A stretch of 64,000 bases of DNA from Chiloscyllium plagiosum (taxonomy: Eukaryota): positions 9,029,306-9,093,305 of the forward strand of contig NC_057755.1 in assembly GCF_004010195.1 (NCBI RefSeq). Direction: 5' to 3'. A model generated the notes under the pieces. That model did not search any database. It was not told where the DNA came from and saw only the letters and a program-made list of their open reading frames with translations. Below, piece after piece: positions 10,229-63,861 of the stretch. Position 1 is the stretch's first letter, and each line of letters begins with the position of its first letter. The position numbers and the translations under genes were made by a program.

Positions 10229-11142
10229 TCACTTTTCCTTTCGCTTGAGCAATATCAGAAAAAATGAACAAGGGAATGCTAACATTTCCTTCAGTTCTTC
10301 CCTAAATTTCCTTTGTGTGGCTGTATAAATACACACGTTTGTGCATGAACTCAAATACATGAGCATGTAGCCCGTTTCAGTGGCAATGTAGGCAGGAGCT
10401 GCATAATCACCCCGATAATGTGCAGTGTTTGTCATCCTCGTAGATAAAAAGCTCACAGCTGCTGTCAGCCAAAGGAGAATAAAACTCCCTGATATAGTGA
10501 AGAGTAAAATAATGGACCTTCTTCGACTTTCCATCTCTGGGTCTCTTTGACTCTTATGAATGCTTCCACGGACAGCTCTGCGAGATCTATTGGCGATGAC
10601 AATACGCCTGATGGTCAAGCAGTTAAATGTGAATAGCAAAGGAAATGGAAGCCAAAGAACTAATATACTTTGTAACCAGGAGAATGCTGTACCCAACGGC
10701 GAAGTGAAGAAGTTCAATTTTGTGCGGCAACCCCACTGTAACTGATCAATTACTTGTTCAGGTTCATATGCAAACAAATAGGGTATGTTCTCCAGACAAA
10801 CCAGGGCAGTGGTGATCATTATAACTGCACCCGCTATCCTCACTCTGCAATATTTTGTTTTCAGTCTCTCACAACATATAAATACATATCGATCAAATGT
10901 GAACATGACCGTGAACCACACTGACATGTACAGGGTGACTGAGCTCATGTAATTAAGTAACTTACACACTCCAGTGTAGAAAAAGAACGAATGTGTAAAG
11001 TGATAACTGAAGATTCGAAACACAGTTATGTTGAAGATCATGACCAGAAAAGCTGCTGTTGCCATGGCCATCATGTAAGCAGAGGTACAAGTGGAAAGGC
11101 CGCAGTTTCCCTTGGAGAGAATGATCATTGTCGCCAAGTTTG
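10229..11142 (-). CDS. GPR139/GPR142-like class A GPCR, gene A, exon 2 (TM1 end to stop)
   Basis: Open 914-nt exon after acceptor ttacag; seven hydrophobic segments when joined to exon 1; SVWFTVMFTFDRY, ECL Cys pair (GVCK/WGCR), SGSFILLW, SSCTNVCIY...KFREEL. Confidence 0.93.
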
Positions 11143-12134
11143 CTGTAAGCCAATTTAATCAAAGAGAAAAAACAGAATCATTCAGAAAAAGAAATTCTAC
11201 AAACTTTGTGGTGAAATTCTGAAAAGTTTGCTACTCAAAAAAATAGTGCAATGCTATTTTTCATTAACTGTGTCAGAGTAATGGAAAGTGCATTATGGGA
11301 TAACAAATCATTGAATACTCAGAATGGAGAGACTGATACGTTGGCTTGTTTCCAACATCATCCAGTGAATTGCTTTCAACTATTTCAAAGTGAATGGTAG
11401 GAGTTGTCCTCTCATAGGTTAGGTTACTTTCAGATATGTGAACTGACAGCCAAATGAAATCACCGCAGGAACATTAAAATGCTTAGTGCCTCGGAAAATT
11501 GAGCCCAATGGTTCCTAAAAACGACTCTTTGAATCAGCAGGGCAATATTAGACACAAGGTATATCGCTCAAACAAAAGACTAAACAATTTGTTAACAATG
11601 TATTAACTGAAGCAGAGCAATTTTAAGCAGCAAAGTAATCGATCTAATGGCGAAGTTTTAACACCAATCCTAATTAGAGCCAGTAGTCTGGTACCAAGAG
11701 AAAAAGACCAACAGGCAAATTGAGGACCAAATGAATAAGAGAAACACATTAATTATGATTTACTGGTCATGTCGCTTTAGCAGTTTCGACAATCTGCATC
11801 ACCACTGACACAACAGATTGCAGATTTCTTGGTTTCAAATGACTCTGACGCATGCAGAAAACTTACTGCCGGCTCTATAGAATATTCATTTGATTCTTAT
11901 ATCCGAGATTGCATACTCTGAAATTTAAATATGTTGGTAATAAGAGGATAATCAAGGAGCAAACAGAACTTTGTGCTGTATCTTTAAAATGCACAATCGT
12001 TCTGTTCCAAATGCAGCCCAAAGACTATTTCATTCTCTGGGCCCTACTTCAATAACAAGAAAGCAGAGATTATGAAAATACAATCTCATGTGTTCGGATC
12101 AAATGAATATTCTTTGAAGCCTGCTGTGGAAAGG

Positions 12135-18984: not shown

Positions 18985-19720
18985 CATTCAAAATTATCCA
19001 TATCTGCAAGCTGAATTTGTTCTCAATTTGTCTGTTTGGTTCACAGTTGCCTTCACATTTGAACGCTTTATCGTTCTTTGTTGCACACAGTATAAAACAA
19101 GACATCGCACTGTGAGAACTTCAGTAACAGAAATAACCATGAGCTGTGTCTGCATCTGCTTCAAGGACATTCCCATGAATGTTGAACTTGGATCTGAATA
19201 AATAGTTAACAAGATGCACTGGAACAGCCTGCACAGTGTATCTTTCCTTTCTTCAGACCCAGGAATAATATATCACTGGTTTTACAGAATCACAACAGTT
19301 TGGCCGACAATCAAACCGATACTAGTGAGCAGCAGATCCCGCAGAGGACTTCAGAGTCAGCTGACTGATCCTCAGCATGATCCGGAAATGGAGAAGAGAA
19401 AGAAACCTATTATTTCACTGTTCGCCATTTCAGGTTGTTTTCTACTCCTGTGGCTGACAGCTTTTGTGAGTTTTGTAACTACCATGCTTACAAATACAGC
19501 TTACTCCTCTGATGACCGTAGAAATCAAGGATACATTGCAATGGAAACTGAAGCAATGTTGTGGTGTTTGAGCTCCTGTTCAAATGCGTGCATTTGCGCA
19601 GCGACCCTGAGGAAATTCATGGAAGTGTTGATGGATCTACTGAAAGCTCTCTCTGAATTCATTATTACATTCGATAACAACAGTAAGAACTGTAGGCTGA
19701 ACTGCCTGCAAGAAGATTGA
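18985..19720 (+). pseudogene. GPR139-like pseudogene psi1, exon 2 remnant (TM3-TM7)
   Basis: LSVWFTVAFTFERFIVLCC..YKTR, in-frame TAA at 19199, TM5 partly deleted, then DPEMEKRKK..LFAISGCFLLLWLTA..LSSCSNACI..RKF. Confidence 0.88.
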
Positions 19721-47380: not shown

Positions 47381-47592
47381 GCCATGCCTCTAGGAACGGA
47401 GAACAGCCAGGGAATGCCTAGAGGCATGGCATTCATCCACAGATTTAATCAGTAAGCACATCGATCTGGACCCAATATACCAACCACTGCAATGGACAGC
47501 TGGAACCAACAACCGGAAGTGGCAGATTCAAACCACTACAAATGCCGGAGAAAAATCACAGAAGCGCTGCACAAGAGGCTCCCAAGCACTGA
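47381..47592 (+). mobile_element. Partial copy of the palindromic PLE-derived element, including its inversion junction
   Basis: gccatgcctctaggaacggagaacagccagggaatgcctagaggcatggc; RTARECLEAWHSSTD..KHIDLDPIY (GIY-YIG C-terminus). Confidence 0.85.
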
Positions 47593-47729
47593 AAATCCTC
47601 TGAACTTGGTTCCTTCCTCTATGTTGCAAATATTCGCCTTTGGGTTTCCTTCCCTGTCAAATACCTTTGGAGCATATTCACCTGACACAGCATTCTCACA
47701 GGCAGGTTTGACACTGAAACAGATGTGTG

Positions 47730-53700: not shown

Positions 53701-55325
53701 TATCGGCCTCCATCACCACCCCTGGTAATGTGTTCCAGTTCATTGTTAACATCTTTGTAAAAACTAGTGCGCCTGCCAACTCCTTTTCATTTTCTCCCAC
53801 TCACCTGAATGCATGCCACCCCGTATTAGAAATTTCTGCTCTGGGAAAAAGAAGAAATTCAGATTGTCAATCCTATCTATGAATGTTCCCACATTCCACA
53901 ATGTGAGTCTGTAATGACGTCCTCTGGAGACAGACACAGGATGCGACAGCGAATGTTCCCTTCGTTGACTGGTAATTCCTGGGAGTAGAGAAACTGTGCC
54001 ATGTTCTTCGCAGCTTGCAACACATCATCGATGAGGATGAGCAACTAACCAAGGTCTGCCCGACGCCCCCACTTCTCACCTTTAACTAACTCCCAAAACG
54101 TGAACACTCCATGGTTTGCAGCAAACTGTCCAGCCTTCAGGACAACATCGAATACAACACCATACAACCCTATAATAGCAAGCACTGCAAGGTATATCGG
54201 AATGTCGACATGGCTACTACTATAACTCTTGGGGACACAACCCATGACGGGGCAGCAAGTAATCATGAGACTCGGCCAGTGTTGTCTCACTCATAAGATG
54301 CAGGCAATGATGCCTGGGGCATGGTACTTGGGCAAGAGTAAGCAGTCACTATGACAATGGATGAGTGGACACCACGCAACAGTCGCCAGAGAGCAATCTC
54401 CTATCTCATTCTGGAACAGTTCAGAAGTAAAGGGCATTGAGTCGTGGATCTTTCACTAACCATTTTCCAAGGCGACTTCGGGATACACAACAATACAGAG
54501 TCACCGAGTATAGGCTGATAGCCATGTTTGATACCCATGATGATGGTCTTGAATGGAATCTTAGGTTAATGACTTATGACAGGTGGCCCCATTATACGAT
54601 ACACTCTTGCACATAAACCCACACACCAGAAAGATACGCACACAACCTTATACATGATCGCACTCGCACACTCACGTAGATGCTCTCTCATATGAATGCA
54701 ATTTCAGATGCACACAAACGTACATTCACATTCAATACCCACTCTCTGACAGACATATACTCTGTCATATTTGCACGATCACACTTTCAAGCACGCACAC
54801 ACGCACTCAGACTTTCTCTCCCTCTCTACCACACACATACTCTCACACACATTTACACACACAGGTGCACACCTACACTCTCACGTTCTCTCTCTCTCTC
54901 CCTCACACACATATAAATGCACGTACACACACATATACGTCTATGGTATGAATTTGCAAATTCAGATGAGCAGATGCATTTTTTTAAAAAACACACAATC
55001 TGTAGGCAGTCAGTCAATGTGACATCATATAATTTCATATTTTAGAAATACAACCAGTCTGACTCATATTTATAATACAGACAGATTCTAACCTCACAAC
55101 TTCAATGCATTGTCTGTACCGATATGTCACTTTTTTAACAAAAACATTTATCTCGCGAATGTGACTTGCAAATGCTTTGGGATTTACATATTAATGATTT
55201 GAAACATATAGCCCCATTCTAAATGATTAAGACTGAACAGCAATCTAGGTTTGTTCAATAGATTGCATCAGTTGTACAACAATCTTATCTGTTGTGTTTC
55301 TGTTCGCCAAGCTGGGAATTTGTTT

Positions 55326-55365
55326 GCAGACGTTTCGTCTCCTGTCTAGGTAACATCCTCAGTGC
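55326..55365 (-). ncRNA. Minimal type-I hammerhead ribozyme motif, core intact
   Basis: Reverse complement GCA-CTGAGGA-TGTTACCTAGACAGGAGAC-GAAA-CGTC-TGC; stem I GCA/TGC. Confidence 0.78.
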
Positions 55366-55715
55366 TTGGGAGCCTCCTGTGAAGCGCTTCTGTGATCTTT
55401 CCTCCGGCATTTGTAGTGGATTGAATCTGCCACTTCCGGTTGTTAGTTCCAGCTGTCCGTTGCAATGGTGGGTATATTGGGTCCAGGCCGATGTGCTTAT
55501 TGATTGAATCTGTGGTTGAGTGCCATGCTTCCAGGAATGGAGAACAGCCAGGGAAAGCCTAGAGGCATCGCATTCATCCACAGATTCAATCGGCCTGGAC
55601 CCAATATACCCACCATTGCAACGGACAGCTGGAACTAACAACCGGAAGTGGCAGATTCAATCCACTACAAAAGCCGGAGGAAAGATCACAGAAGCGCTTC
55701 ACAGGAGGCTTCCAA

Positions 55716-55755
55716 GCACTGAGGATGTCACCTAGACAGGGGATGAAACGTCTGC
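55716..55755 (+). ncRNA. Minimal type-I hammerhead ribozyme motif, core intact
   Basis: GCA-CTGAGGA-TGTCACCTAGACAGGGGAT-GAAA-CGTC-TGC; predicted cleavage after C55752. Confidence 0.78.
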
Positions 55756-56744
55756 AACACAAATTTCCAGCTCGGTGAACAGAACCACAACAATGAGCAC
55801 CCGAGCTACAAATCTTCTCACAAACTTTGAACAATTTTATATTTTAGTAGGAATGCTGTGCCCTATGATCCTGCCCCTCCAGCGAGGTGATGAAGAAGCA
55901 GTTCTCCAAAGGCTTGTACTTCCAAATAACCATGTTGGACTCTACCCTGATTTTGTGTATTTTTTTAAACGTTGTCCACCCCAGCCCAATCCCAGCATCT
56001 TCACGACATCAAATTTCCCCTCAGCCTCTGCTGCTCAGAAGAAAACAACTCGAGTTCTTCTAGCCTCTCTTTTCAGCTCACACCGTCTATCCAGGCAGAA
56101 TTCTGATAAACCACTTCTGCATCCTCTCCAAAGTTTCCAGATTCTTCTTGTAATGCTGTGAGCAGACTTTAACGCAAAGCTGTCAGTGTGGCCAAACAAA
56201 CGTTTACTAAAAATGCAACACAGCATGTTGTGTCCTCTCCTCAATTCCCCGACCAATAAAGACAAGCATGCCACATGCCCTCTTTACCAGCCAATCACCT
56301 TGCATGGCCACTTTCATATAAGATCTCTCTGTACATCAGTGTTGTTCCGGGTCCTGTCATTAGCTGTATACTTTTCCTTAACATTTGATCTCCCAAAGTA
56401 ACAATTAGTAAGTTCCCTGTGCGTGCTATACCTAGGTACTAGTTACTGCGACTCATTTCCAAGACATCCAAATCCTTCTGCACTGAAACACTCAGATGTT
56501 TCTCTTCATTTCGATAATAATTTGCCTTTCCCTTCCTCCAATTAAAATGGACATCCTCTCAATTATCTGTGATAAAGATAATCTGCTAATTTTTGCCCTA
56601 TTATCCATAACGACTTTGTAAATTTTTAAATTCTTCACTACATATGACGTCCATAACGTATTATTGTGTAATCTGCAAATTTATTGTGGTGTGGATGACG
56701 CCTCATGCTCGGAGGTGCCTGGTTTAGTTGAAGGGGACTATGGT

Positions 56745-61990: not shown

Positions 61991-62947
61991 GTTATTGAAG
62001 TAGAGGCAAAGTACTGAATTAGTCTTTGGGCTGCATTTGCAGCAGGAGGATTGTTTCTATTAAAGCTACAGCACAAAGTTCTGTTTGCTCCTTGATTGTC
62101 CTCTTATTACCAACATCTTTAAATTTCAGAGAGCACGCTCTCAGTTCCACGAATCAATTGAATATTCTCTAGACTCGACAGTAAGTTTTCTGCATGCATC
62201 AGAGTAATCTGAAAACAAGAAAACTACAGTCTCGTCTGAGGGGGATGACAAAGATTGTAGAAGCAGCTACAGCAAATTGACCAGTAAATAACATTTAATG
62301 TGTTTCGCGTTTTCATTTATTCCTTAATGTGACTGTTTGTCATTCTGTCTTGGTGCCAAAGTACCAGCTCTAAATAAAGAAGATTGGTTGTGAAAACGCA
62401 GCCATTAGTTCGATTACTTCACTGCTGAAAATTATTCTGCTTTGGTTAGTACATTGTTAGCGAATTGTTTTGTTCCCATTCTGAGGGACAGACCTCATAT
62501 CGATATTAGTTATTCACAAAGTCTAGTTCTGATGATTTACAGAGTCTGTTTAGGAACCATTCAGAATACTTTTGCGAGGCACTGAGCATTTTAAAGTTCC
62601 TGCAGTTAAAATAACAATATAAGGATGCTGGTTTGATTTGGCTGTCAGTCATTGTATCTTACACAATGTAACCATTAATAATGGCACCTTCTACTATTCA
62701 CTTTGAAATAGTTGAAAGCAATTCACTGGGTGATGCGGGAAACAAGTCAACTTATCAGTCCCACCATTCTGAGTATTCAGTGATTTGTTATCCCTTAATG
62801 CACTTTCCATTACTCAGACACAGTTAATGAAAAATAGCATTTCACACTATTCTGAGTAGCAAACTTTTCACAAATTCACCACAAAGTTTGTAGACTTTCT
62901 TTTTCTGAAAGATTCTGTTTTATGACGTTGATTAATTTGGTTTTCAG

Positions 62948-63861
62948 CAAACTTGGCGACAATGATCATTCTCTCCAGGGGAAACTGTGGTCTTTCCAAT
63001 TGTACCACTGCCTACATGATGGCCATGGCAACAGCAGCTTTTCTGGTCATGATCTTCAATGTAACTGTCGTTCGAATTTTCAGTTATCACTTTACACATT
63101 CGTTCTTTTTCTACACTGGAGTTTGTAAGTTAATTAATTACATGAGCTCGGTTACCCTGTACATGTCAGTGTGGTTCACAGTCGCGTTCACGTTTGATCG
63201 GTATGTATCGATATGTTGTGAGAGGCTGAAAACAAAGTATTGCAGAGTAACGATAGCGGGTGCAGTTATGATGATCACCACTGCCCTGGTTTGTCTGGAG
63301 AACATACCCTTTTGGTTTGCATATGAGCCTGAACAAGTAATTGGTCATTTACGATGGGGTTGCCGCACAAAGTTGAACTTCTTCATTTCGCCATGGGGTA
63401 CAGCATTCTCCTGGTTACAAAGTATTTTAGTTCCTTGGCTTCCATTTTCTTTGCTACTCACATTTAATTGCTTGACAATCAGGCGTATTGTCGTCGCCAA
63501 TATATCTCGCAGAGCTGTCCGGGGACACAATAGTGAGAGTCAAAGAGACCCAGAGATGGAAGGTCGAAGGAGGTCCATTATTTTACTCTTCACGATATCG
63601 GGAAGTTTTATTCTTCTCTGGCTGACAGCAGCTGTGAGCTTTTTATCTACGAGGATGACAAACACTGCACATTATCGAGGTGATTATACAGCTCCTACCT
63701 ACATTGCCACTGAAACTGGCTACATGCTCATGTATTTGAGTTCATGCACTAACGTGTGTATTTATACAGCCACACAAAGGAAATTTAGGGAAGAACTGAA
63801 GGAAATGTTAGCATTCCCTTGGTCCTTTATTCTGATATTTGTCAATCGAAAGGAAAAGTGA
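62948..63861 (+). CDS. GPR139/GPR142-like class A GPCR, gene B, exon 2
   Basis: Acceptor ttttcag, 914-nt open exon; FDRY, SGSFILLW, SSCTNVCIY; 34 differences from gene A over the 302-aa ORF. Confidence 0.93.

Follow-up and report, generated by a model that had tools for sequence, protein, structure and literature searches.

The palindromic unit at 55278-55842 of the window (the whole 64,000-nt stretch of Chiloscyllium plagiosum DNA analysed here) is, with a probability of about 0.93, an ordinary, decayed inverted insertion of a Penelope-like element (PLE) and not a member of a palindromic family. An inverted-repeat search of the window returned a 169-bp core with 97% complementarity (55324-55492 with 55589-55757), which self-alignment extended to 55290-55792, the right arm carrying a 12-nt deletion. 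Flanking it is an 11-bp target site duplication (TSD) with one mismatch (55278-55288 and 55830-55840), or 13 bp if two mismatches are allowed. These results confirm the original prediction of two inverted PLE 3' ends between TSDs. The unit is predicted to fold into one long hairpin of -444.2 kcal/mol (z = -39.5; 0 of 100 shuffles equally stable). The proposed strand symmetry is not supported: the unit has a tail of ~38 nt at its right end only. Its arms have diverged by 6.6% (16 aligned positions differ), and the tailed arm is the longer of the two (reaching -303 in parent coordinates, compared with -288 for the tailless arm). The arm-encoded peptide corresponds to the last residues of the parent ORF, sharing 54 of 63 amino acids with the C-terminal end of a longer copy. 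The features are as follows:

55278-55290, no strand: left TSD, with its 11-bp core at 55278-55288; the 13-bp version with two mismatches overlaps the first base of the element
55290-55538, minus strand: tailless arm, an inverted 5'-truncated PLE 3' end (parent -288 to -39 from the tail end; 90% to the full-length copy L140)
55326-55365, minus strand: minimal type I hammerhead motif of the left arm, with two substitutions in stem II and a cut predicted after 55329
55531-55545, no strand: head-to-head junction, the tailless-arm break lying within the parent's self-complementary GGAATTCC; one non-templated base
55540-55792, plus strand: tailed arm, a 5'-truncated PLE 3' end (parent -303 to -39) with the 12-nt deletion near 55587-55590
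55593-55661, plus strand: shared-variant tract, partner at about 55420-55488, with five variants private to both arms
55716-55755, plus strand: right-arm minimal type I hammerhead motif, predicted cut after 55752, with G10.1-U11.1
55725-55727, plus strand: right-arm ATG at the head of stem II, equivalent to the point where the parent ORF starts
55793-55830, plus strand: PLE tail, ~38 nt of the parent ORF start, at the right end only
55830-55842, no strand: right TSD, pairing with the left TSD
47381-47593, plus strand: fragment of 213 bp with the unit's junction and several rare variants, ending within the ribozyme core and lacking the 12-nt deletion

Between the five variants private to the unit's two arms (among the sampled arms), the arms do not differ from each other at any position (p about 0.0009, post hoc). 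This pattern points to probable later arm-to-arm gene conversion at 55593-55661 and about 55420-55488.

The parent is a coding PLE family. Exact matches to a 42-nt motif from the ribozyme region numbered 3,339 in the 3.56-Gb genome, with 0 for the reversed control, and the 150 RT-region matches that were scored were all at least 88% identical. In copy L140, a full 2,503-nt unit, with pLTRs at both ends, directly follows a truncated tandem copy of 534 nt. L140 matches RVT_1 in a Pfam profile search (E 1.9e-11), and its later ORF contains stops and a frame break. The neighbours of the family's RT in a protein atlas are eukaryotic RT clusters (0.95). Longer copies end in a GIY-YIG-like C-terminal motif, VVYKIPC..C..YIGQTGR. 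The Pfam profile search of this endonuclease region matched no family, and its best atlas match is a 'putative GIY-YIG domain' (0.96; PF01541 on 20% of members), an assignment of lead grade. In the parent layout, the ORF has its ATG at the head of stem II, and its first nucleotides make up the tail. The combination of an RT ORF, a lead-grade GIY-YIG endonuclease, partial-tandem pLTRs and inverted, one-tailed, TSD-flanked copies identifies the family as an EN+ PLE. The earlier view that PLE machinery made the unit is supported. The genome contains two or more further hammerhead-bearing families that differ in their stem II sequence (L166, L170, L173 and L187; L169 and L177), several of these loci lying within inverted repeats.

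We assembled a position-based copy sample from the first 100 of the 3,339 exact motif matches, all on contig C1, which yielded 88 loci. Size was not a criterion. Outward-facing pairs were present at 48 of the 88 loci, a count from one contig and from copies chosen on the exact motif; 27 of the 88 were examined with 1.5 kb of flank only, and distant partners may be missed there. The palindromic copies anticipated elsewhere in the genome were thus found. Their spans form a continuum from 219 to 2,995 bp, with 5 of the 48 falling within 541 ± 30 bp. TSDs of 10-18 bp, all different, flank 39 of the 48 pairs, compared with 13 of 300 random controls. Note that the script had counted 40; the match at L067 (8 nt, inside the element) was removed. 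The commonest TSD length in inverted copies is 13. Corrected for the double sampling of two-armed loci, the inverted fraction is roughly estimated at ~40%, or about 2,500 such insertions. Insertion of the coding parent family routinely yields inverted pairs of all sizes.

A similarity search with the unit returned many palindromes of similar size (best 40 scored of 4,883 candidates). When the best 17 distinct palindromic loci were aligned, their centres mostly differed from that of the unit. Genome-wide, the unit's junction had three matches at up to 2 mismatches, namely the unit itself, the 47381-47593 fragment and a locus with a different junction; no dispersed full copy of the junction was found at this threshold. 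Among the sampled pairs, 2 of 48 share a junction. The tabulation of palindromic copies and TSDs proposed with the original prediction, carried out here on the contig C1 sample, yields pairs with TSDs, but pairs of widely varying span whose centres are nearly all different. The fixed length, shared interior and many dispersed copies of a MITE-like family are not seen, nor are symmetric TIRs and a TSD of fixed length. A junction hot spot at GGAATTCC was also considered and rejected: it appeared strong among the best 17 similarity matches, but these are confounded by query selection, and in the position-based sample only 2 of 72 breakpoints lie at most a few bases away.

The two ends of inverted copies follow a simple rule. 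One tailed and one tailless arm make up 41 of the 43 classifiable pairs (p 1e-10 against 50%); 40 of the 48 pairs were classed as mixed automatically, and L067 was added after allowing for an insertion that splits its tailed arm. Mixed ends were also observed in all 17 pairs found at 21 loci selected by other criteria (4 loci had no pair) and, by eye, in 8 of 10 symmetric copies (one already counted). Unpaired copies fall into the same two end classes (30 tailed, 10 tailless). In the 32 simple mixed pairs, the tailless arm extends further 5' in 18 and the tailed arm in 6, with 8 ties (p 0.023). Arms diverge by 0.060 within a locus versus 0.078 between loci, and the within-locus arms are the closer in 29 of the 38 pairs long enough for comparison. 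The two arms of a locus carry the same minor allele at 67 of 110 sites, compared with 21.5% in shuffles (maximum 40.7% in 2,000). Discordant-looking arm alleles occur at L064, L080, L050 and L084. Separately, arms that end between -55 and -67 occur at L054, L055, L063, L069 and L072, and also at L149 and L199, and in several the TSD directly adjoins that end; these ends perhaps represent a third, minor start site.

LINE-1 5' inversions arise by twin priming, with cDNA synthesis primed from each of the two target strands and internal joining of the products. The inverted piece is then an upstream, non-overlapping part of the element. In contrast to this L1 arrangement, the two arms of the unit are outward-facing copies of one and the same 3' end. 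A parallel in layout is the Anolis Poseidon element PAc, whose protein cleaves and extends both strands, starts reverse transcription at two internal sites that delimit the tail and depends on ORF sequence as far as +172, a dimer being predicted (Frangieh 2024, PMC11167929, available portions). In both elements the ORF starts at the head of stem II and there are two end classes. Counted from the A of the ATG, the predicted cut lies 28 nt downstream in the parent and 26 in PAc, and the tail ends at about +106 to +109 in the parent and at +111 to +118 in PAc (same portions of PMC11167929).

From the end rule, the arm lengths, the allele sharing and the PAc biochemistry, we infer twin priming with one start site per strand. 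Thus, the unit was likely built at insertion by priming of reverse transcription from both nicked target strands. The RT-endonuclease, a predicted dimer in the anole relative, would nick the target strands about 13 bp apart. One 3'-OH would start cDNA at the outer internal start site, giving rise to the tailed arm, and the other would start at the inner site ~38 nt upstream, giving rise to the tailless arm. The template for both arms would mostly be the same RNA or a sibling RNA. Both cDNAs would stop early and repair would link them, a step favoured by self-complementary stretches of the RNA, and the two hammerheads would be passengers of the duplicated pLTR. By analogy with the anole protein, the unit was probably dead on arrival, since the ORF sequence beyond the tail that this protein requires is missing. 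More tentatively, at a shade below even odds, a protein dimer may start one cDNA per internal site and strand on the same RNA, the inner one ahead; an inverted head before a full-length copy would then be heritable over successive rounds, with the ends remade. If true, coordinated twin priming would unite the tail, the head-to-head geometry and the junction-sharing lineages. Counting against twin priming, 2 of the 48 pairs are tailed at both ends, and in 5 of 48 an end falls between -60 and -67 and belongs to neither end class.

The rival that survives best, although we consider it unlikely, is an ordinary PLE insertion that owes its mirror arm to self-priming: at a palindrome, either the cDNA or an antisense RNA would fold back and serve as its own template, and the endonuclease would trim one end to leave a one-sided tail. 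Self-priming, including from antisense RNA, has been proposed for PLEs, and palindromes at inverted junctions are reported (Arkhipova 2013, PMC3846280, in part). The studied unit fits fold-back locally, which speaks against twin priming here: its tailless arm starts inside a native 8-bp palindrome, and its tailed arm is the longer one. Perfectly symmetric centres are located at the native palindrome GAAGCGCTTC in 26 loci, at GGAATTCC in 3 and at the control site in 0. Such a concentration at native palindromes is predicted by self-priming as well; same-sense cDNA ends could likewise anneal only there. The greater similarity of arms within loci is also in line with self-priming, and may in part stem from later conversion, as is probable in the studied unit, which weakens it as support for twin priming.

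In contrast, of the 24 pairs with unequal arms, 18 have the longer arm on the tailless side. Fold-back of the tailed cDNA is ruled out for such pairs, since a mirror arm cannot exceed the arm it copies. A tailless cDNA in turn has no tail to copy, so that each arm would need its own RNA-templated start. The discordant arm alleles at some loci also argue against self-priming, as does the fact that the tailless end is an end class of unpaired copies. Furthermore, only 8 simple pairs are near-symmetric, and the excess of breakpoints near native palindromes is slight (17 of 72 versus a background of 15.5%). The ten symmetric copies comprise at least three sequence variants, each common to both arms of a locus, indicating that identical centres arose repeatedly.

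Not all centres are newly made, as indicated by the fragment with the unit's junction 8 kb away and by 13 loci that share another junction. This raises the alternative that the unit's junction was inherited, with RT reading through a longer source that had an inverted head and only the outer ends being made at insertion. The 13 loci (L150-L162; e.g. G000:C1:42982955 and C1:120098517) lie on 12 contigs and share the junction -88/-173; at 7 of the 10 loci tested the TSDs are distinct and 12-17 bp long, and either arm, or both, can carry the tail. Three of them have an inner-arm template switch at -86 to -88, and L150 and L156 have a short A-rich insertion in common. Another junction is common to three loci. 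Segmental duplication was rejected as the source of the 13-locus cluster: the TSDs differ, and the flanks are unshared save for three short repeat-like matches. Judged from these sequences, the centre of the cluster was most simply inherited and its ends remade, the simplest source being a full-length element with an inverted head; gaps are present at L156, L159 and L160 where such a source might continue. Palindromic heads can thus be handed on at times; this much of the original prediction survives, but it concerns other junctions, such as that of the 13 dispersed loci, and not that of the unit.

For the unit itself, inheritance of the junction is improbable. The fragment at 47381-47593 carries the same junction, as inheritance would have it, but a TSD was looked for around it and not found, and it ends in the ribozyme core. 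These properties fit local DNA-level copying, and we infer that the fragment was copied from the studied unit. The lack of any dispersed copy of the junction at up to 2 mismatches and the sharing of junctions by only 2 of 48 sampled pairs also speak against inheritance. Two inverted copies in which the tailed arm runs into the ORF start, L105 (74 nt) and L094 (about 500 nt before a gap), are candidate sources able to pass on an inverted head. One locus of a different kind, L206 (G000:C8:63791250), is symmetric and doubly tailless, and its host flanks are mirror images too; it is either a fold-back rearrangement or an assembly artefact.

We also analyzed the hammerhead motifs. The CTGAGGA cores are located at 55719 (plus strand) and 55362 (minus strand), with the motif of each arm facing outward in the order CUGAGGA-U-stem II-GAAA-CGUC-UGC. 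The minimal type I hammerhead motif originally described is supported by its features (core CUGANGA / GAAA / UH, an extra base before stem II and a palindromic ACGU), and C17 of the right-arm motif is 55752, the named cut position, an agreement in position only. The claim of an intact motif in each arm holds for the two cores but not for stem II, which has decayed in both arms: it is changed on the left, and on the right G10.1-U11.1 replaces the conserved G-C pair, the left arm keeping G10.1-C11.1. A relaxed descriptor matched the genome 9,625 times versus 22 times for the reversed control. In an alignment of 15 sequences from two families, with related and motif-selected rows, stems I and II are 85.3% paired versus 31-45% when slid. 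Covariation in these 15 related, motif-selected rows is modest: its score was reached by 2 of 500 shuffles, while pairs altered at both positions number only 2 (303 of 500). Non-CpG changes in the ribozyme cores of genomic copies amount to 5 of 432, versus 134 of 5,252 elsewhere (p 0.07), giving no clear sign of selection. Rfam returned no hammerhead model around the unit at E ≤ 10, nor in the window at the gathering score, a result that is uninformative for minimal hammerheads.

The motifs resemble the min-HHRs of metazoan PLEs in their core, the extra base before stem II, the long stem II and the palindromic 15.2-16.2 pairs, and differ in having a stem I of 3 bp compared with 4-5 bp and in the right-arm change from G10.1-C11.1 to G-U (Cervera and de la Pena 2014, PMC4209133, as available). 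The same source describes min-HHR pairs 100-700 bp apart on opposite strands in Schistosoma, with no cleavage as monomers and weak cleavage as dimers. In the predicted fold of the full-unit RNA, 39 and 38 of the 40 ribozyme bases are paired with the far arm at a probability above 0.9. The monomer hammerhead fold is predicted to lie 3-4 kcal/mol above the MFE in both arms. Prediction places the ribozyme of a read-through transcript inside a 250-bp duplex; whichever side transcription comes from, the antisense arm is made first, so that such an RNA is predicted not to cleave. The proposed long hairpin RNA with a self-cleaving end thus works against itself. RNA reads spanning the unit were not found, one run containing 15 partly fitting reads and another 0, which is uninformative either way.

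A self-propagating, strand-symmetric non-autonomous palindrome, MITE- or retrozyme-like, that is mobilised as one unit and gives a self-cleaving hairpin transcript, is very improbable, and the junction search has already largely refuted it. In its favour are the many palindromes of similar size, a hammerhead motif that is genuine at the family level and the existence of junction-sharing clusters, but those clusters concern other junctions, the best 17 similar loci mostly differ at the centre within a continuum of sizes, the unit is asymmetric, its ribozymes are predicted to be sequestered (mean pairing probability 0.97 and 0.95), the arm divergence includes the G10.1-C11.1 pair, and nothing beyond the tail is left for protein binding. 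The unit shares with non-LTR retrozymes a non-coding, PLE-derived sequence with a type I hammerhead. However, retrozymes are head-to-tail tandems with ribozymes on the same strand, whereas the unit is head-to-head with one ribozyme per strand and has no unit family (Li 2026, 10.64898/2026.07.22.740005, in the sections available).

An inverted copy with a one-sided tail and a TSD is known from EN+ PLEs (Arkhipova 2013, PMC3846280; Craig 2021, 10.1101/2021.04.23.441226; both in excerpt), and inverted pLTRs have been named as a curation pitfall (Goubert 2022, PMC8969392, in excerpt). The unit resembles these inverted-pLTR insertions in its head-to-head inverted 5'-truncated copy, a tail of 30-40 bp at one end, the TSD and the palindromes at some junctions; it differs from those in the published excerpts in that both arms are short and no ORF body is left. 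The figures of 41 of 43 tailed/tailless pairs and a longer tailless arm were not found in the available text of Arkhipova 2013 or Craig 2021. The main text of Frangieh 2024 (PMC11167929), as available, does not take up inverted insertions, its sole 'inverted' referring to a blocking nucleotide. Our literature search, whose scope excluded most subscription papers, found no statement of twin priming for PLE inverted insertions. The copy set bears on the origin of PLE tandem and inverted structures, which, in the portions available, Craig 2021 called 'undefined', for which Arkhipova 2013 offered self-priming and to which Frangieh 2024 contributed two start sites and extension of both strands.

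The unit itself is ordinary, and its value lies mostly in the testable end rule. The pairing of one tailed with one tailless arm hints at how PLEs insert, and together with the arm-length bias it makes sharp predictions for the existing in vitro PAc system. For annotation, TSD-flanked palindromes with two hammerheads need a junction test before being described as a new non-autonomous family.

Elsewhere in the window, two similar, intronless reading frames of the rhodopsin GPCR family are located at 10229-11158 (minus strand) and 62932-63861 (plus strand), matching 7tm_1 with E about 2e-18. A partial GPCR-like fragment lies at 19202-19720 (plus strand). By their sequence, these frames and the fragment appear to form a receptor gene cluster.
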